DNA of 64,000 nucleotides, taken from positions 1,312,001-1,376,000 of the forward strand of contig OZ241875.1 in assembly GCA_965203325.1 (NCBI GenBank). Reading direction: 5' to 3'. A program made the translations under genes and the position numbers. Positions 1 to 18,638 of the stretch are shown here, in pieces. Below the pieces are notes generated by a model. The model searched no databases, was not told the DNA's origin, and was given only the letters and a program-made list of their open reading frames with translations. Position 1 is the stretch's first letter, and each line of letters opens with the position of its first letter. This DNA comes from a bacterium. Lineage in GTDB: Bacteria > UBA8248.

Positions 1-15
1 GGGGGTGCTTTTTTA

Positions 16-101
16 TACCCCCCTGACAAGGGGGGGTAGGGGGGGCAGGACAGCCCCGAGGAGGGGCTGTCCTTTATCCCCTGACAAAGGGGGTTGGGGG
101 G
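16..101. repeat. Two CCCCTGACAA(A)GGGGG..T(A/T)GGGGGG palindromic repeat units flanking a perfect 11-bp hairpin
   Basis: Units at 16-45 and 75-101; AGGACAGCCCC-GAGGA-GGGGCTGTCCT at 47-73; related inverted copy at 12628-12651. Confidence 0.7.
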
Positions 102-259
102 TCGAACGCGACCGGGGAGGGAGCGTTCGTTCCCTTGACAAAAACTTTTTCAACAACCCCGAAGGCCGGGGTCGATATTCTCATCCGGCGCGGACGGGCC
201 GGATGTCCGATAGGGGATAGCGTCAGAAGACAGAACAGCCAGCCAGGGAGGTGCGAAGA

Positions 260-1366
260 ATGAAATCAGTTCGCGTTGACAGGCGCCGGATACTCTGCGG
301 AGTCCTGCTGAGCGCCTGGGTTTTGCTCCCCGCCGCGGGCCAGGGGGCTGCTCTCGCGCCCCTGCCGGCGCCCAAGGCCCAGAAGCCCGCGCAGGCCGAA
401 CTGGGCCGGTACCTGTTCTTCGACCCCCGGATGTCGGGGGACGGAGGGGTCAGCTGCGCCACCTGCCACCAGCCCGCGAAGGGCTGGGGCGACGGGCAGG
501 CGCTCTCGGCGGGTTATCCGGGGAGCAAGTATTTCCGGAACGCCCAGACGCTCTTGAACGCCGCCTACAACAAGCGCGTCTTCTGGGACGGCCGCCTGAG
601 CGGGGCCGACCTGCCCACGCTCGTGCGGGACCACCTGACCGAAGCCCACTTCATGCTGGTCGACGGCCGCCTGTTCCCCGAGCGCCTCAAGCAGGTGCCG
701 CTTTATGTGAAGAAATTCAAGGAGGTCTACGGCGGAGAGCCCTCCTTCGGCGGCGCGCTCAAGGCCATCGCGGCGTTCCTGCACACCATCGCCTCCAAAA
801 ACGCGCCTTTCGACAACTACCTGAAGGGCGACAAAAAGGCCCTTTCCGCCGAGGCGCAAAAGGGCCTCGCCCTGTTCAGTGGAAAGGCCGGATGCGTTCA
901 GTGCCATAACGGCGCGCTATTGAGCGACGGCGGGTTCCACGCGCTCGGCGTCCCCGAGAACGAACAGATATTCAAGGACCCGCTGCGCCACATCACCTTC
1001 CGGCGGTTCAACAAGGTCATCGGCGTCCCCAACTTCATGAACCTGAGGGCCGACCCCGGCCTCTACGTCGTGACGAAACAGGAGAGCGACCGCGGCAAGT
1101 TCCGCACGCCGACCCTGCGCGAAGTCGCCCGGACGGCGCCCTACATGCACAACGGCGCACTCGCCGCGCTTGAAGACGTCGTCGCCTTCTACGACAGGGG
1201 CGGCGGGAGCGGCCCCAACAAGAGCTCGCGCTTGAAGCCGCTGGGGCTGACTGCGGATGAGAAGAAGGCCCTGGTGGCGTTCCTTAAGAGCCTCTCGGGC
1301 GAGACGGTTTCTGCTGCGGCGCCGAAAATTCCCGATTATGAACTTCGCAAACTCGGCGATAATTGA
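260..1366 (+). CDS. idrP: Di-heme cytochrome c peroxidase, MauG-like (IdrP-type)
   Basis: Sec signal; CATCH and CVQCH heme motifs; FWDGR, FRTPTLR, PYMHNG; GGGAGG RBS favours ATG at 260 over GTG at 251; adjacent to idrBA-like genes. Confidence 0.85.
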   Translation: MKSVRVDRRRILCGVLLSAWVLLPAAGQGAALAPLPAPKAQKPAQAELGRYLFFDPRMSGDGGVSCATCHQPAKGWGDGQALSAGYPGSKYFRNAQTLLNAAYNKRVFWDGRLSGADLPTLVRDHLTEAHFMLVDGRLFPERLKQVPLYVKKFKEVYGGEPSFGGALKAIAAFLHTIASKNAPFDNYLKGDKKALSAEAQKGLALFSGKAGCVQCHNGALLSDGGFHALGVPENEQIFKDPLRHITFRRFNKVIGVPNFMNLRADPGLYVVTKQESDRGKFRTPTLREVARTAPYMHNGALAALEDVVAFYDRGGGSGPNKSSRLKPLGLTADEKKALVAFLKSLSGETVSAAAPKIPDYELRKLGDN

Positions 1367-1376
1367 GGAGACGGCC

Positions 1377-2516
1377 ATGAACGCGCGAATCAAAAACTGC
1401 TTCCTGGGTTCCACGATGGCCGTATGCTTCATCGCCGCTCTTCTGGTGGGAGGAGCAAGCGCGGCCCAGGAGGGGAAATTCCCTCCGCTGGGACCCTTGC
1501 CGCCTGTTCCGGTGCCCGCGGACAACCCCATGTCCGCCGCCAAGGTGGCGCTCGGCAAGCTGCTCTTCTTCGACGCCCGCCTCTCGGGCGACGCCAGCAC
1601 GTCGTGCGCCTCCTGCCACAGCCCCGAGAGCGGCTGGGGGGACGGGGGCGATCTGAGCCGGGGCTACCCCGGCACGCAGCACTGGCGGAACTCCCAGACG
1701 ATCCTCAATTCCGCCTACTACGCCAAACTGTTCTGGGCGGGCGAGTCTACGAGCCTCGAAGCGCAGGCGAAGAGCGCCGCCACGGGCAACGTGGCGGGCA
1801 ACGGCGACACCATGATGATGGAGGAGCGCCTGCGCCAGGTCCCCGAATACGTCAGGCGCTTCCGGGCGGTGTTCGGCTCCCCCTGGCCCACCATCGACGA
1901 CGCCTGGCGGGCCATCTCCGCCTTCGAGCGCACCGTGGTGTCGAACGCGAAGGACGTGCCCTTCGACCGCTTCATGAAAGGCGAGGAGAAGGCGCTCTCG
2001 GACAGCGCTAAGCGCGGGCTGGCTCTCTTCCAGGGAAAGGCCGGGTGCGTCCAGTGCCACAACGGCGCGCTTTTATCGGATGAGGACTACCACAACGTCG
2101 GCGTTCCCAGGAACCCCGCGTTCGAGGAAGACCCCTTAAGGCAGATAACGCTTCGCTACCAGCACGTCATCCGCGGCGTTCCCGAATCCGTCTACCGCAA
2201 GGCGGACCGGGACCTGGGGCTCTTCTACACCACCAAGCGCGAGGCCGATAAGGGGAGGTTCCGCACCCCGAGCCTTAGAGAGCTCAAATACACCGCGCCC
2301 TACATGCACAACGGCGCATTTTTCGAGTTGGATGAGGTCATCGATTTTTATGACGAAGGGGGCGGCGAGGACGCGAACAAGAGTCCCCTCATCAAGAAAC
2401 TGGGACTTTCGGACGAGGAGAAAGAAGACCTGCTGGCGTTTCTGGAATCGCTCTCGAGCGATAAGCCCCTGCTCGTCCGGCCCCCCGAACTGCCGCCGTA
2501 TGCGGCCATGCCGTAA
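1377..2516 (+). CDS. idrP: Second di-heme cytochrome c peroxidase (IdrP-type paralog)
   Basis: GAGGAG RBS then ATG 1377; signal peptide; CASCH and CVQCH; FRTPSLR, PYMHNG; clearly paralogous to the upstream gene. Confidence 0.85.
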   Translation: MNARIKNCFLGSTMAVCFIAALLVGGASAAQEGKFPPLGPLPPVPVPADNPMSAAKVALGKLLFFDARLSGDASTSCASCHSPESGWGDGGDLSRGYPGTQHWRNSQTILNSAYYAKLFWAGESTSLEAQAKSAATGNVAGNGDTMMMEERLRQVPEYVRRFRAVFGSPWPTIDDAWRAISAFERTVVSNAKDVPFDRFMKGEEKALSDSAKRGLALFQGKAGCVQCHNGALLSDEDYHNVGVPRNPAFEEDPLRQITLRYQHVIRGVPESVYRKADRDLGLFYTTKREADKGRFRTPSLRELKYTAPYMHNGAFFELDEVIDFYDEGGGEDANKSPLIKKLGLSDEEKEDLLAFLESLSSDKPLLVRPPELPPYAAMP

Positions 2517-2526
2517 GGAGGAATCC

Positions 2527-3069
2527 ATGACTCAGGAAGCCAAGGAAACCCGGCCTTGCGTCTCGCGGCGCGCCTTTCTCCTGGCCGGCGGAACCGCCGT
2601 GAGCATCGTGCTGGTCCAGGGCATCCCCGGCCTGGCCGGAGCGGCCCTGCAAAGGGCGGAGTATCCCCGCCAGAAAATCGGGACGCTCAGCGCCTTGAAA
2701 GTCGATGCGCCGCAATTCTTCCAGTACCCGTGGAAGGACGTCTTCTCGGGGTGCATGCTGGTCAAACTGGGCGTTCAAGCCGGCGGCGGCGTCGGTCCCA
2801 AGCGGGACGTGGTGGCGTTCAGCACCCTCTGCACCCACATGGGCGGCCCCCTGCAGGGAACCTATAACGCGCAGCACAAGGCCATCGGCCCGTGCCCGTT
2901 CCATCTGACGACCTTCGACCTGATGAAGCACGGCATGGTCGGGGCGGGGCAGGCCACCGAAAGCCTCCCCCAGGTGGTTCTGGAGACCCGAGGAGACGAC
3001 ATCTACGCGATCGGGATGATGGGGCTGCTGTATGGTTATCACTCGAATCTGGCGCCGGTACAGCGCTGA
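2527..3069 (+). CDS. idrB: Rieske [2Fe-2S] small subunit of an arsenite oxidase/iodate reductase family enzyme
   Basis: AAGGAGG RBS; twin-arginine signal SRRAFLL; CTHMGG and CPFH boxes; AioB-like C-terminus GQATESLPQVVLE...IYAIGMMGLLYG. Confidence 0.85.
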   Translation: MTQEAKETRPCVSRRAFLLAGGTAVSIVLVQGIPGLAGAALQRAEYPRQKIGTLSALKVDAPQFFQYPWKDVFSGCMLVKLGVQAGGGVGPKRDVVAFSTLCTHMGGPLQGTYNAQHKAIGPCPFHLTTFDLMKHGMVGAGQATESLPQVVLETRGDDIYAIGMMGLLYGYHSNLAPVQR

Positions 3070-3081
3070 GGAGGACGCATC

Positions 3082-5748
3082 ATGGCAGGAAAGGTGACGA
3101 ACTACTATCTTGCGGAAGACAGTGTCCCCCTCCCCCCGCCGAACGCGGAGGTGTTCACCACGGCGTGCGACTACTGCATCGTGGGCTGCGGGTACAAGGT
3201 CTACCGCTGGCCGATCGGTCGCGAGGGCGGACCCAAGGCGAGCCAGAACGCCCTGCGCGTCGATTTCCCCACCGCCATCATGAGCGGCGGCTGGGTCAGC
3301 CCGAACATGCACAACATCATCATGGTGAACGGCAGTCCCCACCACGTCGTCGTCATGCCGGACAAGGATGCGAATGTCGTGAACGTGGGGGGGAACCACT
3401 CCATCCGGGGCGGCGTCCTGGCCAAGAAGCTCTACAACCCCAACGAACCCTCGCAGGACCGCCTGCGCCAGCCGATGATGCGGGTCCGCGGCACCTTGCA
3501 GGAGGTCTCGTGGGACACGGCGGTGGGCGTCATGGCGGGACTCTCGAAGCACGTCCTCGACAAGTACGGCGAACACGCCTGGGCCATGAAGACGTATTCC
3601 TATCAGTATTTCGAGAACACCTACGCCATCTCCAAGCTCGCTTTCCGCGCCATCGGAACGCCGGCCTACGCCCCGCACGACAAGCCGGGCCCCGGCAAGG
3701 ACACGCCCGGGATCGATTTTTCCGGCATCAACCCCTTCAGCGCCTCCTATGACGACTGGGGAGAGGCCGAGGTCATCTTCTTCTCGGGCGTCGACCCCTG
3801 GGAGACCAAGTCGGTGCTGTTCACCTCGTGGATCATGGGCGGGAAAACGCCGAGCAAGAAACTCGTCTTCGCCATGCCGCGCAAGACCTCGGGCGTGGCC
3901 TACGGCGAGAAGCGCGGCGGCCTCTTTCTCCCCGTCATTCCGGGGACGGACACGGTGCTCCACCTGGCCATCATCCGCCTGATTCTGGAGAACGGCTGGG
4001 AGGACAAGGAGTGGATCGCGCGAAAAATCTCGAACAAGTGGGAGATCGGCTCCGGCATGGGCCGCGGCACCCGCAACACGCCCTGGCAGTGGGTCACGAC
4101 CTGGGGCAAGTACGGGACGGACTTCGAGGGCTACAGGAAGTGGATCATGAGCTACCCCTACGCCGAACTGGAGAGGGCCGCGAAGATCACCGGCGTGCCC
4201 GCGGCGTCCATCCGCCAGACGGCGGAAATACTCGCCAAGCCCAAAGCGGACGGAACGCGCAAGAAGACCTCGTTCATGCTCGAGAAGGGCAATTACTGGT
4301 GCAACAGTTTCGGGAACACGGCTTCCTTCGCGGCGCTGGGGCTGGTCTGCGGCGCCGGGTCGCGGCCGGGCCGGGTGATCTCCCGAGGCGGTGGACACCA
4401 GCGGGGCTGGATGGGAGGGGCCGGTTATCCGAGGAGCCTGTCGCCGGAGAAGGCGCCGGGGCGCCGCAAGAAGGAGATCGACCTCGACCGCTGGGTCGTG
4501 GACGGCCATGTGCGCTTCGCATGGGTCATCGGGACCACCTGGTGCCAGGCCATGGCGGCGTCTCAGGAGTTGATGGACGTCTTCCAGCGATTGACGCGCC
4601 GCAACCCGCACCAGATCGAGAGCTTCGACGTCGATACGGCGGTGGATGCGCTGAAGCGGCGGACGGACGCCGGCGGCATGGTCGTCGCCCACCAGGACAT
4701 CTACCCCGTTTCCCCGATCGGAACCGAGTATGCGGACCTGGTGCTCCCGGCCGCCACCTGGGGCGAGGAGGACTTCACCCGGTGCAACGGCGAGCGCCGC
4801 CTCAGGCTCTACAGCAAGTTCGCCGACCCCCCCGGAGAGGCCCGGCCCGACTGGTGGATCATCGCGGCCTTCGCGCGGAAGATGGGCTTCAAGGGCTTCG
4901 ACTGGAAGGACAGCAACCAGATATTCGAGGAGGCGGCCCGCTTCGGCCGCAAGGGGGTGCTCAACTACCACCCGCTCGTGGTGAAGGCCAAGCGCGAGGG
5001 GAAACGAGGCCACGAGCTGCTCCGCGAATACGGGACCGGCGGCATCCAAACCCCCATCCGCATGGTCAAGGGCGAACTCGTCGGTACGAAGCGCCTCCAC
5101 GACGAGACCCTGGAACTCGGAACCCCCGAGGGACCCACAATGCACCGGAAATGGCTCACCTCCTTCGGCACCCAGAGCGGCAAGGCGGTCTTGCTGAAAA
5201 GCTACTGGGAGGATTTCAAGGATTTCTACGATCGGGTCACCCCGCAGGGAGACGAGCTGTGGGTGACGAACGGCCGGATCAACGAGCTCTGGCAATCCGG
5301 CTACGACGACAAGCGGCGGCCCTACATCATGCAGCGCTGGCCCCAGCAGTTCCTGGAAATTCACCCCAAAGACGCCGGCGCCCGGGGCATCGAATCAGGA
5401 GACCTGGTGGCCATCGAGAACGACGACCTGCTCGTGCAGACGGGCGGATACATCGGCGTCGACGGCAAGGAGCAGACGTTCACCGAGCTCATGAAGGCCG
5501 GGAATATCAAGAAGAGCAAGGGGAGCTTCACCGCTGTGGCCATGGTCACGGACGCGGTCCGGGAGGGCGTCACCTTCGCCTATTTCGGCTTTCCCGAGAA
5601 CCCGGCGAACTCGGTGGTCCACCGGGTGCCGGATCCCCTGACCAACCGCTACCGCTACAAGCTGGGCAAGGGGAAATTGAAGAAGATAGGAGAATCTCCG
5701 CACAAGCATTCGCTGACGAGCTTAAGCTTCGTCCCCCGGACGCTTTGA
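3082..5748 (+). CDS. idrA: DMSO reductase family molybdopterin subunit, AioA/IdrA clade; probable iodate reductase catalytic subunit
   Basis: DSVPLPP..TTACDYCIVGCGYKVYRWP N-terminus ([3Fe-4S] CxxCxxxC plus Ser in NHSIRGG); LVLPAATWGE, NGERR, TNGRINELWQS; two flanking peroxidases as in idr clusters. Confidence 0.8.
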   Translation: MAGKVTNYYLAEDSVPLPPPNAEVFTTACDYCIVGCGYKVYRWPIGREGGPKASQNALRVDFPTAIMSGGWVSPNMHNIIMVNGSPHHVVVMPDKDANVVNVGGNHSIRGGVLAKKLYNPNEPSQDRLRQPMMRVRGTLQEVSWDTAVGVMAGLSKHVLDKYGEHAWAMKTYSYQYFENTYAISKLAFRAIGTPAYAPHDKPGPGKDTPGIDFSGINPFSASYDDWGEAEVIFFSGVDPWETKSVLFTSWIMGGKTPSKKLVFAMPRKTSGVAYGEKRGGLFLPVIPGTDTVLHLAIIRLILENGWEDKEWIARKISNKWEIGSGMGRGTRNTPWQWVTTWGKYGTDFEGYRKWIMSYPYAELERAAKITGVPAASIRQTAEILAKPKADGTRKKTSFMLEKGNYWCNSFGNTASFAALGLVCGAGSRPGRVISRGGGHQRGWMGGAGYPRSLSPEKAPGRRKKEIDLDRWVVDGHVRFAWVIGTTWCQAMAASQELMDVFQRLTRRNPHQIESFDVDTAVDALKRRTDAGGMVVAHQDIYPVSPIGTEYADLVLPAATWGEEDFTRCNGERRLRLYSKFADPPGEARPDWWIIAAFARKMGFKGFDWKDSNQIFEEAARFGRKGVLNYHPLVVKAKREGKRGHELLREYGTGGIQTPIRMVKGELVGTKRLHDETLELGTPEGPTMHRKWLTSFGTQSGKAVLLKSYWEDFKDFYDRVTPQGDELWVTNGRINELWQSGYDDKRRPYIMQRWPQQFLEIHPKDAGARGIESGDLVAIENDDLLVQTGGYIGVDGKEQTFTELMKAGNIKKSKGSFTAVAMVTDAVREGVTFAYFGFPENPANSVVHRVPDPLTNRYRYKLGKGKLKKIGESPHKHSLTSLSFVPRTL

Positions 5749-5795
5749 TGGAGATGGAGGTTTACACAGGCCCGTAGAACCGCGAGGGAGGTTGA

Positions 5796-6182
5796 ATGCG
5801 AATGTCTCGATCGAGAGGATTCATCATCTGCGCAGGCCCTGCGCTCGCAGTGGCGTTCTTTTTCTGGTCTTCGGATGACGGGGCCGCTCAGCAGAAAGGC
5901 GACGTTGCGGCCGGCAACGTCAAATACCAGCAGCTTTGCGCCTCCTGCCACGGTGCATCGGGCAAGGGCGACGGCCCCGCAGCCAAGGCGCTCAACCCGA
6001 AGCCGAGGAATCACACCGACGCCAAATACATGAAGACCATATCGGATGAGTACATCGCCAAGATCACCAAGCTTGGCGGCGTCGCGGTAGGAAAATCGCC
6101 ACTGATGCCCCCCTGGGGCGGGGTTCTTTCGGACGCGGACCTCCAGAACCTGGTCGCGTTCATGCGCTCCCTGGCGAAATAG
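5796..6182 (+). CDS. Monoheme class I cytochrome c
   Basis: N-terminal signal/anchor; CASCH; distal Met in LMPPWG. Confidence 0.85.
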   Translation: MRMSRSRGFIICAGPALAVAFFFWSSDDGAAQQKGDVAAGNVKYQQLCASCHGASGKGDGPAAKALNPKPRNHTDAKYMKTISDEYIAKITKLGGVAVGKSPLMPPWGGVLSDADLQNLVAFMRSLAK

Positions 6183-6192
6183 GACCGCGGGC

Positions 6193-8238
6193 ATGGATTC
6201 CGGGAATCGGGACCCTCTCCCTCCCGAGCGCTCTTTTCGGGTCGAGTTGCCCGGCCACGACCACTGGCGGAAAACGATTTGCTGTCAGGACGCGTGTCCC
6301 GTCCATACGGACGCGCGGGGTTACGTGACCGCCATCTCGGAGGAAGACTTCGAGCGCGCCTACATCATCGCCCGGGGGCCCAACCCCTTCGCGTCGGTTT
6401 GCGGGCGTGTCTGCGCGGCGCCGTGCGAAGCGGCGTGCCGCCGCGGCAACATCGATGCGCCGGTGGCCATCCGGGCGCTCAAGCGATTCGTGACGGAGCG
6501 CTACGGGGTCGAGGCCGATTTGTCGTCCGGCAAGGGAGAATCCTCCTTCTCGCACCGGAGCCTCAGGAGTATGCGCGACCTCCGTTTTCAGCCCGCCACG
6601 CGCACCATCAACGATTTTTCGGTGCTGGAGGCGGCCCGCCGAAAGCCAGAACAGGAAAAGACGGCAGGAAAAAAGGTGGCCGTCGTCGGATCGGGCGTGG
6701 CGGGGCTGACCTGCGCCCACGATCTCGCCCTGCTCGGCTATGACGTGAGTGTTTTCGAGAAACAGGGAGTCCCCGGCGGCATGCTCATGCTCGGGGTTCC
6801 CGAATACCGCCTTCCGCGTGATCTTGTTCAGGCCGAAATCCAGGCCATCCTCAGCCTGGGCGTGGAGCTTCGGCTGAACCAGGCCATCGGGCGGGACTTC
6901 AACCTCTCCTCTCTTCGCGAGGAAGGCTTCGAGGCGGTGTTCGTCGCCATCGGCGCGCACGTGAGCCGCTCTCTCCCCATGGAAGGACAGGACGCGGACG
7001 GCGTTTTCCGGGCCGTCGAGTTTCTGCTGAACGTGAACCTGAACTTCCGCGTCGATCTGGGCGAGCGCGTCGTCGTGATCGGCGGGGGGAACGTGGCCAT
7101 GGACGCCGCCCGGGTCGCCGCCCGGGTCGCCGGCGGGGCGGACGCCCCCGCAAGCGCCGCCGATCAAACCGAAGACGCCGTCCTCATGCGGGAGATGATG
7201 GACGTGGCTCGGGAGGCGATGCGCGTGGGAGCGAGGAACGTCCACGTCATCTGCCTGGAATCGCGCGACGAGATGCCGGCGGCGGATTTCGAGATTGAAG
7301 AAGCGCTCGATGAGGGGATCGATCTCGAGCCCCGGGTGGGGCCCGTCCGCATCATGGAGAAAGAGGGCCGTGTGGTCGGGCTGGAAGTCCAGACGTGCAC
7401 CCGCGTTTTCGATGAGGAAGGCCGCTTCAGCCCCGAATTCGACCCGGACTGCAAGCGCGTGATTCCGTGCGATTCGGTGATCGTCGCCGTCGGCCAGGCC
7501 TCCGATCTCTCCTGGATCAGCGAGGAAGACGGCGTCGAGACGACGCCGCGCGGGACGATCCGCGTCGATTCCGAAACCCTGGCCACGACCGCTCCGGGCG
7601 TGTACGCGGGCGGGGACGTCGCCATGGGCCCCCGGATATTCATCGAGGGCGTGGAGAACGGCCACCGCGCCGCCCGCTCCATCCACACTTATCTATCCGG
7701 CGGTCAGGCAGGCGTCCAGACGCATCTTCAGTGGGCCTCCATCGAACCCTTGCAACAGGCGCTGCTTCAGGAACCGGGAGACGGGTTTTCCTTGCCCATC
7801 GTCAACCCCGGATACCAGAAAGTGTCTCGCCGAAACCCCGACGCGCTGCCCATCGAGCGCCGAATCGGCGTCACCGAGGTGGAGTTAGGTTATTCGCCCG
7901 AGGAGGCCGTCGATCAGGGGCTCCGGTGTCTGCGCTGCAGCGCAAACCCGATCTTCGACGGCGCCAAGTGCATCCTCTGCGGCGGCTGTGTGGACGTGTG
8001 CCCGTCGCGCTGCCTTCGAATGGTTCCCTTGGAAGCCCTCCAGGGTGGAGAAGACCTGGCGGCTCTGGTCCAGGCCCGCTTTGGCACGTCCGCCGGGGCC
8101 GCAGGAGAGAGGGGCGCGGCGATGATCATGGACCCGGACAAGTGCATACGCTGTTCGCTCTGCGCGCAGCGCTGTCCCACGGGCGCCGTCACCATCGAGA
8201 ATTTTTCTTTCCAGGAAGAGTGGGTGGAGATCGGATGA
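6193..8238 (+). CDS. FAD/NAD(P)-dependent Fe-S oxidoreductase (GltD/NfnB/DsrL-like) with C-terminal 2[4Fe-4S] ferredoxin domain
   Basis: CQDACP, CGRVCAAPCEAACRR; GSGVAG and GGGNVAMD Rossmann motifs; AGGD; CILCGGCVDVCP and CIRCSLCAQRCP; no signal peptide. Confidence 0.85.
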   Translation: MDSGNRDPLPPERSFRVELPGHDHWRKTICCQDACPVHTDARGYVTAISEEDFERAYIIARGPNPFASVCGRVCAAPCEAACRRGNIDAPVAIRALKRFVTERYGVEADLSSGKGESSFSHRSLRSMRDLRFQPATRTINDFSVLEAARRKPEQEKTAGKKVAVVGSGVAGLTCAHDLALLGYDVSVFEKQGVPGGMLMLGVPEYRLPRDLVQAEIQAILSLGVELRLNQAIGRDFNLSSLREEGFEAVFVAIGAHVSRSLPMEGQDADGVFRAVEFLLNVNLNFRVDLGERVVVIGGGNVAMDAARVAARVAGGADAPASAADQTEDAVLMREMMDVAREAMRVGARNVHVICLESRDEMPAADFEIEEALDEGIDLEPRVGPVRIMEKEGRVVGLEVQTCTRVFDEEGRFSPEFDPDCKRVIPCDSVIVAVGQASDLSWISEEDGVETTPRGTIRVDSETLATTAPGVYAGGDVAMGPRIFIEGVENGHRAARSIHTYLSGGQAGVQTHLQWASIEPLQQALLQEPGDGFSLPIVNPGYQKVSRRNPDALPIERRIGVTEVELGYSPEEAVDQGLRCLRCSANPIFDGAKCILCGGCVDVCPSRCLRMVPLEALQGGEDLAALVQARFGTSAGAAGERGAAMIMDPDKCIRCSLCAQRCPTGAVTIENFSFQEEWVEIG

Positions 8239-8239
8239 C

Positions 8240-8731
8240 ATGACTGCGAGCCTGGATGAACAGACCCCCCGGCGCCGGATGCTGCTGGGGCTCGGCTGGG
8301 TTTCCTTCCTGATTTCCCTGCTGGGTCCGGTTCTCGCCAACGTCCGGTTCCTGTTCCCCAACGTCGTTTATGAGGGCGAATCGGTTCTGAAGCTCGACTC
8401 CCTGGATAAGTACCCCGTGGGGTCCATCACGTTTTTCGCCGAGAAGAAAATCGTTCTGTTTCGCGAGAAGGACGGGTTCCGTGCCTGCACCGCCGTCTGT
8501 CCGCATCTCCGTTGCGTGATCAGCCCCTTCGTCGGCGCGCCCGGCGCCTCTCCCGATATATTGAGGGCCCGGTGCCCCTGCCACGGCAGCACGTTCGACG
8601 GGCGGGGACAGGTGCTCGGGGGGCCTGCGCCTCGCGGTCTCGACTTTTTCCTCGTAAAGAAATCGCCCGATGGCCGCGTCGTGGTCGATACGCGCAAAGT
8701 CGTCGCCCCCTCCGAACATTTCAAGATCTGA
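8240..8731 (+). CDS. Rieske Fe-S subunit of a Rieske/cytochrome b complex
   Basis: RRR followed by TM anchor; CPHLRC and CPCHGSTF; GGPAPRGL. Confidence 0.9.
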   Translation: MTASLDEQTPRRRMLLGLGWVSFLISLLGPVLANVRFLFPNVVYEGESVLKLDSLDKYPVGSITFFAEKKIVLFREKDGFRACTAVCPHLRCVISPFVGAPGASPDILRARCPCHGSTFDGRGQVLGGPAPRGLDFFLVKKSPDGRVVVDTRKVVAPSEHFKI

Positions 8732-8740
8732 GCCACCACG

Positions 8741-10237
8741 ATGGTCACCGAACCCACACGGAAACCAGGACGCGGAAAAGCCGTATCGTGGCTCAGGAAA
8801 AACCGCGTCGTCCGCTCGATCTTCCGCCGCGGTTATCCGGACAACGATCTGGATCGCGCGGCCGTCATGTTCTCGAATTTCTTCCTGCACGTCCTTCCCG
8901 CGCGAACGCACGTTCACAGCCTGAAACCCACCTACACCTGGGGGCTCGGGATCATCTCCCTGTTCTTGTTCATCATTCTTCTGGGCACCGGCTCCTTACT
9001 CATGTTCTTCTACGTCCCCTCGACCGAGCGCGCCTACAGCGACATGAAGGACCTGCAATTCGTTGTCTCCTACGGTGTCGTCCTGCGGAACCTCCACCGC
9101 TGGGCTGCGCACGCGATGGTCGCCGTCGTCTTTTTACACATGTGCCGCGTGTTCTATACGGCAAGTTATAAAGCGCCGCGTGAGTTCAACTGGGTCATCG
9201 GGGTGCTCCTCTGGGGGGCGACCCTGATGATGAGCTTCACGGGCTACCTCCTCCCCTGGGATCAACTCGCCTATTGGGCCATCACCGTCGGGTCGAGCAT
9301 CGCCAGCTATCCGCCCCTGGTAGGAGAGCACATCCGCACGCTGATGCTCGGCGGCGATACGGTGGGGCAGAACGCGCTGATCCGGTTCTACGTCATGCAC
9401 GTCATCGTCCTGCCGGGGATCATGATGATTCTCATGGGCGTCCATTTCTGGCGGATACGCAAGGACGGCGGCCTCTCCCGGCCGCCCACGCCGCCCTCCG
9501 AGGCCGCCCGGGGCGAGGCAGCGGCTTTTTCGCCGCACAAGACGTACATGCTCGTGGAACTCGCCGAGGGCAAGACGCCCATGGTGGATGCGCAGGCCCC
9601 CGAAGAAGAGGTCATGAGCTGGCCGCACACGGTCTTCCGGATGCTGGTCGTCTTCGTGGGCGTCGTGGCCGTCCTCTCCGCCGTCGCCTACTTCTTCGAT
9701 GCGCCTTTGGAGGAGCTGGCCAACCCGGACCATCCGCCCAACCCGGCCAAGGCGCCCTGGTATTTTCTCGGGCTTCAGGAAATCGTGAGCTATTCCGCCC
9801 TGGCGGGGGGCGTCATCGTTCCCGCCGCCGCGATCATCGGCCTCATGACCATTCCCTACGTCGACCGGGACCCCGAGGGCCAGGGAACCTGGTTCACCTC
9901 GGGCCAGGGCCACCGGATCACGCTCTGGTCGGTCGTGGCGGTCATCCCGGTCGTCCTCGTCCTGACCTGGCTGAACGAGCACTACGCCGTGCGGATACTG
10001 GTTCCGGGCGCCTCGCAGATCTGGGTCGACCTCCTGAATCCGGGGACCATACTGATCGTCCTCTTCGCCGCCGGGTCGCTCTACATCTGGCGGCGGACGG
10101 GGTCGAGCCGGATGGGGGCGTTGGCCCTGTATTCTTATTTTCTGACGTCTTATCTGATTTACACGTTCATCGGGCTGTATTTCCGGGGCGCCAACTGGGC
10201 CTGGATATGGCCGTGGCAGGCGACGGGCCTGCACTGA
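8741..10237 (+). CDS. Cytochrome b (b6-like N-terminal half fused to subunit IV-like half)
   Basis: HRWAAH..LH and MH..VH heme ligand pairs; [26 protein letters not shown] (PEWY equivalent); extra C-terminal TM helices. Confidence 0.9.
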
Positions 10238-10249
10238 GGCGGATGACGA

Positions 10250-11065
10250 ATGGCGAATTCCAATCACAACGATTCCCATGTGCCGTTCGGGTGGGTGGTC
10301 GCCTTCGCCGTCCTGAGCGTATGCGCGGCGTTGTTTTTTCTGCTGTCCGTCTGGAAGGATTACGACCGCGAATGGCGGGGATACCAGCGGACGTTCCGTG
10401 AGATGCTCGTCGAAAGAGCCGGAACCGAAGAGGAGCGCAAGGCCGCTCTGGCGGGCGGGGATCAGTTCGAGCAAATCATCGTGGCCGGCGGCGAGCGTGT
10501 GGACAGGTGCGTCATGTGCCACCGCGGCGTCGAGCACCCGGCGTTCAAGGACGCCGACCAGCCTTTCGCCAGGCATCCCACCATCCCGCCGCACCCCTTC
10601 GAGCGGTTCGGCTGCACCGTGTGCCACCAGGGCCAGGGCCGGGCGACGAGCGTCCAGGACGCCCACGGCGAAGTCGCGTTCTGGGAGGAGCCGCTGCTGC
10701 GGGGAGGGTTTATCCAGGCCAGTTGCGGCCCTTGCCACGCTGGGGCTCTCAAAGACGCCCCCCTCATCCAGAGGGGCAAGCTGCTTTATCTGATGAACGG
10801 CTGCCTCGCCTGCCACAAGATCAGGGGCGCCGGCGGGGTCGTCGGGCCCGACCTGACCTTCGCAGGCGAGCGCAAGAAGGACCCGAAGTGGCACATCGAG
10901 CACTTCAAGTTCCCGCAAAAGGTTTCGCCCGGCTCCGCCATGCCCGCCTACGGCCATTTGAAGCCTGAGGATCTCGAAGCGCTGACGGTCTACATGCTGA
11001 GCCTCCGCAGGGCGCCTTCCGCCCTGGCGCTGGCCGCGCCCAGGCCCGCCGCCGGGAAGAAATAG
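10250..11065 (+). CDS. Membrane-anchored tetraheme cytochrome c
   Basis: N-terminal TM helix; CVMCH, CTVCH, CGPCH, CLACH; C-terminal domain with GPDL and SAMP motifs. Confidence 0.88.
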   Translation: MANSNHNDSHVPFGWVVAFAVLSVCAALFFLLSVWKDYDREWRGYQRTFREMLVERAGTEEERKAALAGGDQFEQIIVAGGERVDRCVMCHRGVEHPAFKDADQPFARHPTIPPHPFERFGCTVCHQGQGRATSVQDAHGEVAFWEEPLLRGGFIQASCGPCHAGALKDAPLIQRGKLLYLMNGCLACHKIRGAGGVVGPDLTFAGERKKDPKWHIEHFKFPQKVSPGSAMPAYGHLKPEDLEALTVYMLSLRRAPSALALAAPRPAAGKK

Positions 11066-11068
11066 CCT

Positions 11069-11096
11069 GCAGGGACAGGTCGCGACCTGTCCCTGC
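11069..11096. repeat. Perfect 28-bp REP-like palindrome, possible operon terminator
   Basis: GCAGGGACAGGTCGCGACCTGTCCCTGC starts 4 nt after the last operon stop codon; near-identical copy at 18787. Confidence 0.8.
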
Positions 11097-11170
11097 CTTC
11101 AGCGCAAAGGCCCTCCCGCATTGCCCAGAGAGAGGCTGCGCGCCAGTTCCGCCTCCCCTCCTCCGAACGC

Positions 11171-11464
11171 CTACTCCTCCGGCTCGTCATAGGAGATGAA
11201 CGTGATGTCCACCGCCTCGTTGCGGCCGGGGATCAGGGCCTGGTAGCCGTCCGAGTAATACCATTTCTCCACCGCCTCCTGATCGGGGAACTTGAGGAGG
11301 ACGAACATTTGCCTGTCGTGCTCGCCGGTGAGGACTTTTACGAGTTGTCCGCTCGCCGCCACCTCGCCGCCGACGGATGCGACGATTGCGAGCCCCTGCT
11401 CGGCGTAGCTGTTGAAGCCTTCTTCGTCCTTGACGGTGATGTGTCCGACCACGTATGCGCCCAT
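11171..11464 (-). CDS. DUF1330 family protein
   Basis: 97 aa; AYVV..ITV, GGEV, LKFPD..AVEKWYYSDGYQAL pattern typical of the family. Confidence 0.8.
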   Translation of the reverse strand: MGAYVVGHITVKDEEGFNSYAEQGLAIVASVGGEVAASGQLVKVLTGEHDRQMFVLLKFPDQEAVEKWYYSDGYQALIPGRNEAVDITFISYDEPEE

Positions 11465-16996: not shown

Positions 16997-17133
16997 CGAT
17001 GGAAGGGGGGTCTAAAAGAGGCGATTGTGGCACTACGTGTGAAGAATTACAGCGAGGGTTAAGTGAGTAGCACACTCAAAGAAACCTAAGCTATGCTCAA
17101 CGGGACCATAATCCCAATTGGAGATACTAGGTA

Positions 17134-17634
17134 ATGTCGCATCTGGAATTATTAATTGCTGAATACCTTGAGTGGGACGGCTTCATCGTTCGCAAAAATA
17201 TAAAAGTTGGAAGGCTGGACCGCGGCGGTTGGGCGGGAGAACTCGATATCGTCGGCTTTCATCCGCAAACCAATCGTCTTGTGCATTATGAACCATCCCT
17301 TGATGCGTTGAGTTGGTCGAAGCGAGAGAGCAAGTTCGACAAAAAATTCAAGGCGGGTCGAAAATATATTTTCAAGGACATCTTTCCTTGGTTGTCAAAG
17401 GCTCACCTGAAATTAGAGCAATTCGTAGTCCTGCCAAACCATCCAATGGGTCGGGATACTCTCTCAGGTGGAGTTTTAATTTCAGTCGATGAACTCATGG
17501 CAGAGATACGTGCAAAAGTAGCTGAATGCGGCCCGATGGTGACAAACGCTATACCAGAAAATTTTTCACTATTAAGAACCATTCAAATGTCGGAATTTGG
17601 TTACCACAAGAGAAAGTTCATGAATAATTCGTAG
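17134..17634 (+). CDS. Putative PD-(D/E)XK restriction-endonuclease-like protein
   Basis: E..L...GF..RKNI...GELDIVG...LVHYE pattern; GGAG RBS; visibly AT-richer than flanks. Confidence 0.6.
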   Translation: MSHLELLIAEYLEWDGFIVRKNIKVGRLDRGGWAGELDIVGFHPQTNRLVHYEPSLDALSWSKRESKFDKKFKAGRKYIFKDIFPWLSKAHLKLEQFVVLPNHPMGRDTLSGGVLISVDELMAEIRAKVAECGPMVTNAIPENFSLLRTIQMSEFGYHKRKFMNNS

Positions 17635-17699
17635 TGTCAATCATTCCCGAACCAAAAAGCGTCTGGCAACGATGGGTCAGGTTCCAAACTTCCTAATTC

Positions 17700-18638
17700 T
17701 TACTCCGCCCGCGGGTGTAAATCCCCAAAAAACTCCCGCACCTCGGCCTCCGCTTTCTCGAAAGACTTGCGACCGAGCCCGAATATGGCCCGGAGCTTGC
17801 GGGGGTCGTGCTCCATGAAGTCCGTCTCATAGGCGCTGTCGGTGAAAGAGTCGTTGATGCGCAGGGTACAGATATCGGGGAAGAAGAGTTCGCGCAGCGT
17901 ATCGACGGTGTTCGAACTCGTCCTCGATAGCGTCATGTAGGTCTTGAGCGGCCTTATCCCTGCGATGATCCGCCGCGTCCATTGCCTCGACTCGGGATAA
18001 CTGCCTGTCCCGACGCTCAGGATGCGGATATCCTCCCGGGCGATGCCGAGCGGCCCGGTGGCGTCCGCGATGGCGAAAAGGGTGGGGTTGTTCGCCGTGA
18101 ACCCGCCGTCGAGCGCCGTGCGTTCCTCGATTTTGGGCGCGGCGATGCGTTTTTGCTTCAGGAACGGATGCGCGGCGCAAGACGCCAGTATCGCGTCCGA
18201 TATCTTCATGCCCTCGCCCGACAAGAAACTATCGAGATCGCCGTGCGATGGGCCGATGGTGCGCTTGAATACCATGGGGCGGTCGTATTCCTCATGGGTA
18301 ACAAGGATTCCCACGTCCAGCCTGAAATCCTCAAAAGTCCTCTCGCCGTATATCGCTTGCGAATGCCTTTGCAGCGCGTTCGTCTTGTTGCGCGCGAGCA
18401 AGGGCCCCAGCACGTCGGGCGCGAGTTCGAAATAGCGATCCGCAATCGTCGGCTCGACCTCATCGCCCAGTGCAATCATCGTGGCGATGATCGAGCCCGT
18501 GCTGACGCCGTAGGCGAGATCAAAGGCCTCGTGCAGGGGGCGTCCCAGGGTGCGCTCAATCCCGGCCAGCACACCCAGGGTGTAGACCCCGAGCGAGCCG
18601 CCGCCGTCGAGCGAGAGGATGTAGAAGGGCTTGCTCAT
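17700..18638 (-). CDS. Patatin-like phospholipase
   Basis: LSLDGGGSLG, GVSTG nucleophile elbow, DGG catalytic Asp, LSVGTG. Confidence 0.88.
   Translation of the reverse strand: MSKPFYILSLDGGGSLGVYTLGVLAGIERTLGRPLHEAFDLAYGVSTGSIIATMIALGDEVEPTIADRYFELAPDVLGPLLARNKTNALQRHSQAIYGERTFEDFRLDVGILVTHEEYDRPMVFKRTIGPSHGDLDSFLSGEGMKISDAILASCAAHPFLKQKRIAAPKIEERTALDGGFTANNPTLFAIADATGPLGIAREDIRILSVGTGSYPESRQWTRRIIAGIRPLKTYMTLSRTSSNTVDTLRELFFPDICTLRINDSFTDSAYETDFMEHDPRKLRAIFGLGRKSFEKAEAEVREFFGDLHPRAE

Follow-up and report, generated by a model that had tools for sequence, protein, structure and literature searches.

The two kinds of system most closely related to the locus described here are the dissimilatory iodate reductases (Idr) and the Rieske/cytochrome b complexes of anammox bacteria. 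IdrABP1P2 of Pseudomonas sp. SCT, Denitromonas IR-12 and Azonexus NCP973 consists of a Rieske small subunit exported via twin-arginine translocation, the Tat route (IdrB), a catalytic subunit (IdrA) with a 3Fe-4S cluster and a molybdenum bis(pyranopterin guanine dinucleotide) cofactor (Mo-bisPGD), and two peroxidases with Sec signals (IdrP1 and IdrP2). In the model set out in the text of PMC8692401, electrons pass from quinol (QH2) through the cell's general bc1 complex and cytochrome c to IdrAB, and IdrP1 and IdrP2 remove H2O2; the same text takes idrA and idrB in synteny with two di-haem peroxidases as the criterion for iodate reducers, describes loci of the arsenite oxidase (aio) type as being without the two peroxidases, and views idr as a transferable island. 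Published idr clusters stop at idrA or continue with no more than a small cytochrome c gene, the Azonexus plasmid being an example of the latter. Unlike these, an idr cluster of the same gene order on contig OZ241875.1 is followed, downstream of idrA and in the same unit, by a complete Rieske/cytochrome b complex together with a flavoprotein. This locus occupies positions 260-11065 of the plus strand in a window of 64,000 nt, which is the whole stretch of DNA analysed and supplies the numbering used throughout.

The second kind of system is best represented by the two Kuenenia complexes Kuste4569-4574 and Kustd1480-1485, in which a b6-type cytochrome b, an enlarged subunit-IV part, a Rieske protein and a GltD/NfnB-like FAD/Fe-S subunit are encoded in an operon, and a multihaem cytochrome c replaces cytochrome f or c1. 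According to the text of PMC12954380, generation of NAD(P)H by electron bifurcation has been proposed for these complexes and their Rieske homologues measure +303 and +335 mV; for one of the two, that text proposes no driving reaction. More widely, Dibrova et al. (2013, 2017) describe cytochrome b of subfamily G/G' as accompanied in many phyla by Fe-S oxidoreductases that bind NAD(P), and their text on subfamily G leaves idr unmentioned. Judged from their genes, both halves of the present locus are of known kinds, and it is their union in one transferable operon that appears to be new. An earlier reading of the window, made from its letters without database searches (the sequence-only reading), knew of no description of the coupling, and literature searches brought up no paper on it: idr joined to a Rieske/cytochrome b complex is found neither in the text of PMC8692401, as distinct from its supplementary neighbourhood figures, nor in the text of PMC10989891, nor in PMC13455634 and PMC10839748 as covered by term look-ups.

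The idr half of a nine-gene operon

The first four genes (Table 1) make up an idrP2-P1-B-A module, as the sequence-only reading had proposed, and their Mo subunit (g4) is assigned to the IdrA type rather than to AioA because its phylogeny, its sequence identities and its synteny agree. Denitromonas iodatirespirans IR-12 has an IdrA with 61% identity to g4, Azonexus hydrophilus NCP973 one with 58%, and a Thiothrix copy from the plasmid collection also reaches 58%; the identity of g4 to AioA is 28-32% throughout, including the proteins of Thermus, Hydrogenophaga, NT-25 and Ensifer (plasmid collection). Solved AioA structures align with it at E ~1e-80. The neighbouring Rieske subunit (g3) is 62% identical to IdrB of Denitromonas IR-12 (locus L068) and scores 123.3 bits against the arsenite-oxidase small-subunit model TIGR02694, which has a cut-off of 95.65; the two peroxidases (g1 and g2) are 49% identical to each other. 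The Tat motif on IdrB, the hydrophobic N-termini of g1 and g2 and the absence of any such signal on g4 fit the periplasmic export pattern of Idr.

For the phylogeny, one genome per species was scanned, and the best 80 of at least 584 matching relatives provided idr loci whose gene maps were drawn by tblastn. The tree (IQ-TREE quick search, LG+G4) holds 86 rows, 81 of them IdrA-like and five AioA references, and was built without the 'unknown clade' (Halorubrum and one Dehalococcoidia genome) of PMC8692401. All 81 IdrA-like rows form one clade apart from the AioA references, with a Shimodaira-Hasegawa-like approximate likelihood ratio test (SH-aLRT) support of 100, so that membership of the AioA clade, which the sequence-only reading had named as the result that would speak against it, was not found. 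Within the clade g4 shares a subclade (SH-aLRT 99) with sequences of Methylomirabilota and Rokubacteria, and the order idrP2-P1-B-A is common to nearly all 80 loci. The predicted Idr genes of Candidatus Methylomirabilis iodofontis have been published in the same order (PMC10989891).

An identity of g4 as AioA was considered and rejected. Its score against TIGR02693, 'arsenate reductase (azurin) large subunit', is 452 bits with a cut-off of 359, and the tree, the identities and the gene neighbourhood rule the assignment out. Because TIGR02693 scores above its cut-off, such proteins carry the database label 'arsenite oxidase': a word-indexed search with g4 returned hundreds of proteins, 62-93% identical, all so labelled, from metagenome-assembled genomes labelled Nitrospinota, Rokubacteria, NC10, Acidobacteria, Chloroflexi, Pirellulaceae, Lindowbacteria and others.

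Three further observations concern idr loci elsewhere. The cluster of Azonexus hydrophilus NCP973 is plasmid-borne (L106, 238994-253648); it is preceded by a histidine-kinase-like gene and a sigma-54 regulator and followed by the small c-type cytochrome gene and moaA, with TnsA-like and IS21 genes close by. Six loci of marine Dehalococcoidia/Chloroflexota (L026, L028, L030, L031, L032 and L036) have a single peroxidase gene directly upstream of idrA, and tblastn detected neither an IdrB-like Rieske gene nor a second peroxidase in them; the idr cluster there may be a reduced form or a divergent one. The contig L018 (JACQPP010000123.1), which bears idrP1-B-A, is labelled 'Methanobacteriota archaeon', and its IdrA nests among sequences of Planctomycetota and Lindowbacteria, which probably reflects a binning error or transfer.

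The order of the nine co-oriented genes and their close spacing, as read from the sequence alone, were borne out by the open reading frames (ORFs) and their domains. The intergenic gaps measure, in order, 10, 10, 12, 47, 10, 1, 9 and 12 nt, and a Shine-Dalgarno-like sequence precedes the ATG in most of the genes. Domains were assigned with Pfam and NCBIfam profiles; signals were read by eye and from hydropathy.

The short gaps, together with contigs from RNA libraries that cross the junction of the two halves, argue for the operon-like unit that the sequence-only reading had assumed. Six RNA-labelled runs hold parts of the stretch, and four of them, from two studies, were mapped at a likeness of at least 88%. 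Their contigs stem from relatives of the source organism, since they are 90-99% identical to the window. Nearly the whole operon is covered in three of the four runs, and the junction between idr and the module is bridged by X19 record 5 (2837 nt, 4596-7432), X20 record 14 (5257-6373) and X21 record 21 (5611-6016), contigs that together take in idrA, the cytochrome c gene and the flavoprotein gene; in the bin that follows the operon, X19 and X22 have a depth of zero. These data give a weak hint of co-expression of the two halves. No stable fold is formed by the 47-nt gap between idrA and the cytochrome c gene (z = +0.91). A consensus scan of the operon returned no promoter-like sites, and terminator-like sites numbered 15 versus 9.8 +/- 3.1 in shuffles, with none in the idrA-cytochrome c gap; at 65% GC both results are uninformative. 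Joints in the RNA contigs from 45 to 11071 or 137 were considered as circles and dismissed as repeat-mediated graph joins, since their short sides of 20-23 nt lie in repeats.

Table 1. Genes of the operon and the repeats on either side of it, in window coordinates.
Feature	Position	Strand	Length	Characteristics
g1, idrP2-like di-haem cytochrome c peroxidase (CCP/MauG family)	260..1366	+	368 aa	Sec signal; 2 CxxCH; PF03150, 143.7 bits
g2, idrP1-like di-haem cytochrome c peroxidase	1377..2516	+	379 aa	Sec signal; 2 CxxCH; PF03150, 146.9 bits
g3, idrB, Tat-exported Rieske small subunit	2527..3069	+	180 aa	SRRAFL; CTH...CPFH
g4, idrA, Mo-bisPGD catalytic subunit	3082..5748	+	888 aa	CDYCIVGC 3Fe-4S motif; Rieske_3, Molybdopterin and Molydop_binding domains
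g5, periplasmic monohaem cytochrome c	5796..6182	+	128 aa	Sec signal; PF13442, PF00034
g6, cytoplasmic GltD/NfnB-like FAD/NAD(P) oxidoreductase	6193..8238	+	681 aa	no signal peptide; N-terminal Fer4_20, Pyr_redox_2, C-terminal 2x[4Fe-4S]
g7, membrane-anchored Rieske [2Fe-2S] subunit	8240..8731	+	163 aa	PF00355; RRR motif; one transmembrane segment; CPH...CPCH
g8, fused cytochrome b6-like and subunit-IV-like protein	8741..10237	+	498 aa	Cytochrome_B and Cytochrom_B_C
g9, membrane-anchored tetrahaem cytochrome c	10250..11065	+	271 aa	one transmembrane segment; 4 CxxCH
Palindrome, 12-bp stem, copy of a genome-wide repeat resembling repetitive extragenic palindromes (REP-like)	11066..11094			follows g9
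Hairpin-rich repeat units of G/C homopolymer runs	1..140			upstream of the operon

The flavoprotein-Rieske-cytochrome b module

By gene content and synteny the last five genes are an autonomous module. Two relatives of the same family as the source organism, G035 (locus L101) and G025 (locus L103), carry it in the order cytochrome c-flavoprotein-Rieske-cytochrome b-tetrahaem cytochrome c at 51-72% identity, with no idr adjoining. Among Methylomirabilota a flavoprotein of ~60% identity occurs in 8 of 151 genomes, and the order flavoprotein-Rieske-cytochrome b-tetrahaem cytochrome c is kept, with no idr, in four of the five loci inspected. In every module copy inspected the flavoprotein gene adjoins the Rieske and cytochrome b genes, and a tetrahaem cytochrome c gene comes after the cytochrome b gene. 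The monohaem cytochrome c (g5), which the sequence-only reading had counted with idr, has to be moved to the bc module, because its close homologue, 69-72% identical, heads the idr-free copies in L101 and L103.

The kinship of this module with the NAD(P)-oxidoreductase-bearing Rieske/cytochrome b complexes of anammox bacteria, likewise proposed from the sequence alone, is supported by the matches of three of its subunits. The best match of the Rieske subunit (g7) in the PDB is 9rk4 (E = 2.4e-15), which is Kuste4569 of Kuenenia according to Table 1 of Hauser et al. (PMC12954380); 9rk3 ranks third, and the potential-tuning pair of g7 is Ser/Phe, like that of Kustd1480. The flavoprotein (g6) has its best matches in 9bov/9bp5 (NfnABC) and in NfnB (4ylf/5jca), the same structural homologue that Hauser et al., in the text of PMC12954380, used to place clusters in Kuste4570, and its cysteines are invariant in 20 of 20 sequences. 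Cytochrome b (g8) resembles b6 (E = 3.6e-43), with the haem ligands H119, H133, H220 and H235 invariant in 21 of 21 sequences. A crude hydropathy scan gives four to five hydrophobic segments after its residue 290, and the subunit-IV part of the anammox type is described as having five rather than three transmembrane helices (text of PMC12954380). A histidine ahead of helix A may also have a counterpart in the Kuenenia complexes: in g8 it belongs to an invariant NFFLH50 motif, and in the AlphaFold 3 models of the Kuenenia complexes reported in that text His43 of Kuste4571 ligates an extra haem b, proposed to lie where the two halves of the dimer meet.

The likeness to Kuenenia has limits. Cytochrome b and subunit IV are fused in the present module, and the CxGG motif of haem cn is absent, the corresponding segment of g8 reading TWGLG (T-x-G/A-L-G in the family, with Cys in 0 of 21 sequences); the PEWY motif reads APWY. 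The multihaem cytochrome is tetrahaem here versus hexa- or octahaem in Kuenenia, there is no partner resembling hydroxylamine oxidoreductase (HAO), the periplasmic enzyme linked to it is of the Mo iodate reductase type, and the host is apparently an aerobic or facultative heterotroph, not an anammox autotroph. A long or fused cytochrome b without the full CxGG motif, whose conserved operon also encodes a large Fe-S protein that binds NAD(P), is shared with subfamily G/G' of Dibrova et al. The closest named relative of g8 is P0288, 60% identical and labelled at its source as the menaquinol-cytochrome c reductase cytochrome b of Candidatus Methylomirabilis, and from these features and that identity we infer membership of subfamily G. 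The module is thus a member of a known, functionally unsolved kind.

A structural link between the flavoprotein and the membrane part is predicted by modelling. Cytochrome b was co-folded with residues 500-681 of the flavoprotein, using alignments of 20-21 rows each, in three runs and with three controls. The docking score was 0.61 (0.60-0.62 over the three runs) versus 0.00 for the best of the controls, and the 0.61 mark is reached by 116 of 157 solved complexes and by 2 of 215 mismatched pairs, counts that are rough as custom alignments were used. The runs agree in at least 88% of the contacts, and the predicted local distance difference test (pLDDT) value of the partner is at least 76. In the predicted pose the ferredoxin-like domain of the flavoprotein (contact residues 586-665) sits on the n-side of cytochrome b, where it meets residues 34-55, 241 and 262-287, the last of these being the conserved linker between the fused halves; the NFFLH50 motif lies beside the 34-55 contact. 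No solved complex of the flavoprotein-on-cytochrome-b kind is present among the PDB matches to g6 and g8.

Several neighbourhoods of module copies may be recorded in their own right. A gene for an Rrf2-family (IscR/NsrR-like) regulator heads the lone module in L101 (8538-9023) and L103 (14896-15363), and the idr-linked copies are without it. In G025 the Rrf2 gene and module have genes for an NAD-type formate dehydrogenase alpha subunit (TIGR01591, 811 bits) and a NuoF-like subunit close upstream (L103:15811-19946), which could hint at formate or NADH metabolism linked to the module in that genome. Six tandem ankyrin-repeat genes stand directly upstream of the flavoprotein-Rieske-cytochrome b module in the Methylomirabilota genome G073 (L121:2530-8427), and downstream, on the other strand, are an SLAC1/TehA-like channel gene and a NarH-like gene. 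A module of Fe-S flavoprotein, Rieske protein, cytochrome b and cytochrome c reportedly also accompanies clade II nosZ in the cluster drawings of Sanford et al. from 2012. No passage on nos-linked Rieske/cytochrome b clusters was found in the papers searched, whose text merely cites Hein et al. 2017, and a search for Sec-type NosZ gave no match in the 51 genomes of the source phylum in our collection, where control genomes were also unmatched, so that absence is not shown.

Distribution, genomic setting and host

The coupling of the two halves recurs within one small lineage and in two arrangements, and by synteny the module is no general companion of idr. The nine-gene order is present in eight other genome records (L001-L005 and L007-L009) with IdrA identities of 82-99%; because of this recurrence the arrangement is not a matter of chance. 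In one more record (L006) the contig stops inside the cytochrome c gene. Synteny in other genomes, which the sequence-only reading had put forward as a check, thus came to 8 of the 80 idr loci, together with an inverted form in G028, where one contig carries flavoprotein-Rieske-cytochrome b-multihaem cytochrome, two unknown ORFs and then idrP2-P1-B-A. In G041, a member of another family of the same class, the nine-gene order is kept at 70-82% identity. Across 61 relatives, IdrA was detected in 17 and the flavoprotein in 19. Of the 22 genomes in genus g1, 13 combine idrA with the flavoprotein gene, eight have neither, and one has the flavoprotein gene at a contig end; in 12 of the 13 with both, the two genes are ~445 nt apart on one contig.

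Comparison with congeners indicates that the idr-bc unit has been gained and lost together inside an accessory segment of 18.7 kb. The flanks used were L112 at ~6450 and a DUF1330 gene at window positions 11171-11464. These conserved flanks are 75 bp (G006), 268 bp (G019) and 1.8 kb (G001) apart in three idr-free congeners and 18.7 kb apart in the source genome (G000), where the accessory segment extends over C1 ~1304500-1323165 (L112:6500 to window position 11165). Besides the operon it contains a phage-integrase-family gene (L112:10588-11730), an ORF of 754 aa, ORFs without a Pfam match and multi-copy repeats. In G010 the operon lies at another chromosomal site, 1.3 Mb from these flanks, and the flank site holds other DNA. 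Published work regards idr as a transferable island, and this setting is in keeping with that, the island here being enlarged by a bc module. The GC content of the operon, 64.6% versus a mean of 60.4% (95th percentile of 10.8-kb windows), is only suggestive of transfer, and a search for tRNA genes as possible integration sites was negative over 14.3 kb upstream and 30 kb downstream.

On both sides of the operon lie multi-copy repeats, palindromic or hairpin-forming and built of G/C homopolymer runs, some copies of which are 97-99% identical. The sequence-only reading took the palindrome after g9 to close the operon, and this needs correction: the fold is strong (-25.5 kcal/mol, z = -4.55) and lies right behind the gene, but no T-run follows, and because the element is one copy of a repeat spread over the whole genome (102 blastn hits, both orientations counted), it is not an operon-specific terminator. 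The upstream repeat region folds with z = -4.2 and -4.9 and has 193 blastn hits in the genome. Further repeats lie at L112:12373-12502 (64 hits) and L112:13810-13990 (131 hits), within G000:C1:1310373-1311990. Elsewhere in the window, GC falls steeply to 48.8% at 17001-18000, versus ~65% on either side, in a stretch that takes in an ORF (17134-17634) with no Pfam match and the beginning of a gene (17700-18638) for a patatin-like phospholipase.

As regards the host, the presence of MqnA/D of the futalosine route makes menaquinone the likely quinone. The genome encodes one haem-copper oxidase, and a search of it gave no narG-type enzyme above cut-off, no RuBisCO and no NiFe hydrogenase; from its genes the organism looks like a facultative heterotroph. 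A nitrite oxidiser, as the NCBI label 'Nitrospinota' might imply, with nitrite oxidation coupled to iodate, was considered and rejected on the lack of a narG-type match above cut-off and of RuBisCO. A second, housekeeping complex made up of a Rieske protein and split cytochrome b6 and subunit IV is encoded at G000:C1:4281917-4283610 and 4290868-4291584; it is 51-55% identical to the b6-like part of g8 and occurs in nearly all relatives. On this gene inventory the module is an additional complex, not the host's sole one. A g9-like multihaem cytochrome gene lies ~7 kb from the housekeeping complex.

Electron routes and competing explanations

It is reasonably probable, in our judgement, that the nine genes form an accessory respiratory unit in which the Rieske/cytochrome b module acts as a dedicated supply line from menaquinol through cytochrome c to Idr. 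The p-side site of the fused cytochrome b would oxidise menaquinol, and one electron would then pass over the Rieske subunit, the tetrahaem cytochrome c and the soluble monohaem cytochrome c to IdrB, IdrA and the peroxidases, with IdrAB acting as a periplasmic Mo/Rieske reductase whose presumed substrate is iodate and with the two peroxidases clearing H2O2 or further reactive by-products. The second electron would cross the two b haems to the n-side, where the cysteine of the haem-cn site is absent and the ferredoxin-like C-terminal domain of the flavoprotein may be seated, so that the flavoprotein, with its four Fe-S clusters in between, could connect haem bH to FAD and NAD(P). That electrons leave bH for this Fe-S chain would be in keeping with the missing haem-cn site and with the docking predicted on the n-side.

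The direction of the NAD(P) branch is a separate matter. By the energetics argued in PMC12954380, the b-haem branch could in principle reach the NAD(P) couple, given a Rieske centre of high potential and menaquinol near -74 mV. We lean slightly towards a branch in which the high potential of iodate drives the reduction of NAD(P)+, that is, bifurcation as in the anammox proposal; that NAD(P)H feeds electrons in seems possible though rather doubtful. The complete chain, an electron-bifurcating menaquinol:iodate/NAD(P)+ oxidoreductase that would send one electron to IdrAB and the other to a docked flavoprotein making NAD(P)H, is put forward tentatively, as something that may well turn out otherwise.

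A number of observations weigh against such a dedicated chain. Contigs from RNA libraries cannot prove a single transcript, and carried-over DNA is possible. The module is missing downstream in 71 of the 80 idr loci, some on contigs that end near idrA, and no flavoprotein match at E <= 1e-60 was obtained in five further idr-bearing genomes (G061-G065). Idr and module lie on separate contigs in G035, G025 (95% complete) has the module and no IdrA was found in it, and the four Methylomirabilota loci described above keep the module apart from idr. The need of a heterotroph for NAD(P)H made by bifurcation is also less obvious than that of anammox bacteria, and iodate is the presumed substrate of this deep-branching IdrA subclade on the evidence of its sequences. 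Much of this would be explained if an idr island and a general-purpose flavoprotein-Rieske/cytochrome b complex were merely neighbours on a mobile segment, sharing transcription at most, with the bc module serving general respiration, for example by delivery to cytochrome c oxidase; the lone modules behind an Rrf2-family regulator in G025 and G035 and the position of the operon inside an 18.7-kb insert with an integrase-family gene and many repeats are equally in keeping with this. We nevertheless think mere neighbourhood rather unlikely. The linkage has arisen or persisted in two gene orders, one in genus g1 and G041 and the other in G028, and presence and absence are strictly joint in genus g1. 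The linked module has lost its Rrf2 gene and follows 47 nt behind idrA with no hairpin between, RNA-library contigs bridge the junction, and the genome already has a b6-type complex for housekeeping.

Two further explanations keep the chain and alter what it acts upon. The same electron supply could serve the reduction of another high-potential oxyanion, such as bromate, chlorate or selenate. The IdrA proteins of proven iodate respirers (L068 and L106; text of PMC8692401) are solely proteobacterial, and the window's subclade, Methylomirabilota and Rokubacteria included, has 58-61% identity with them, its activity on iodate being predicted from sequence; however, the 81 rows form one clade, the idrP2-P1-B-A synteny seen in nearly all 80 loci is the published criterion for iodate reducers (text of PMC8692401), and the Methylomirabilota copies have been published as Idr (PMC10989891), so a different oxyanion appears quite unlikely. 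The sequence-only reading had also entertained a chain run in reverse, oxidising a halogen or metalloid; in the form considered here, arsenite or reduced iodine would be oxidised and electrons would travel via cytochrome c, the Rieske/cytochrome b complex and the flavoprotein to NAD(P)+. In favour of a reverse chain we counted the descent of IdrA from AioA-like oxidases, the presence of a flavoprotein capable of reducing NAD(P)+ and, in the alignment of IdrA with PDB structures, the apparent retention of what we take to be the arsenite-binding positions (His, Arg, His; Glu replaced by Asp). Against it, the Mo subunit falls outside the AioA clade and stands next to two peroxidases that aio loci are without (text of PMC8692401), the oxidation of iodide to iodate is too high in potential, by reasoning from standard potentials, to reduce cytochrome c or quinone, and no autotrophy marker demanding reverse electron flow was found in the searches for RuBisCO, narG-type enzymes and NiFe hydrogenase. 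The reverse chain is without support here, and we hold it to be very improbable.

The function of flavoprotein-bearing Rieske/cytochrome b complexes has been debated since the anammox genomes. For the dedicated supply line proposed here, the high-potential end of the chain can be named, because idr and the module are wired into one transferable unit: the probable electron acceptor is IdrAB with the peroxidases. The weight of the finding is limited by the uncultured state of the organisms and by the confinement of the linkage to one small phylum-level group. It makes the bifurcation hypothesis concretely testable with nine genes, alters the picture of electron supply for iodate respiration outside Proteobacteria, and adds an uncultured lineage, with sponge metagenomes among its sources, to the candidate iodate reducers. 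If the bifurcation reading is true, gene linkage would have identified the long-sought exergonic partner of a flavoprotein-bearing Rieske/cytochrome b complex, and iodate respiration in this lineage would yield reducing power directly.

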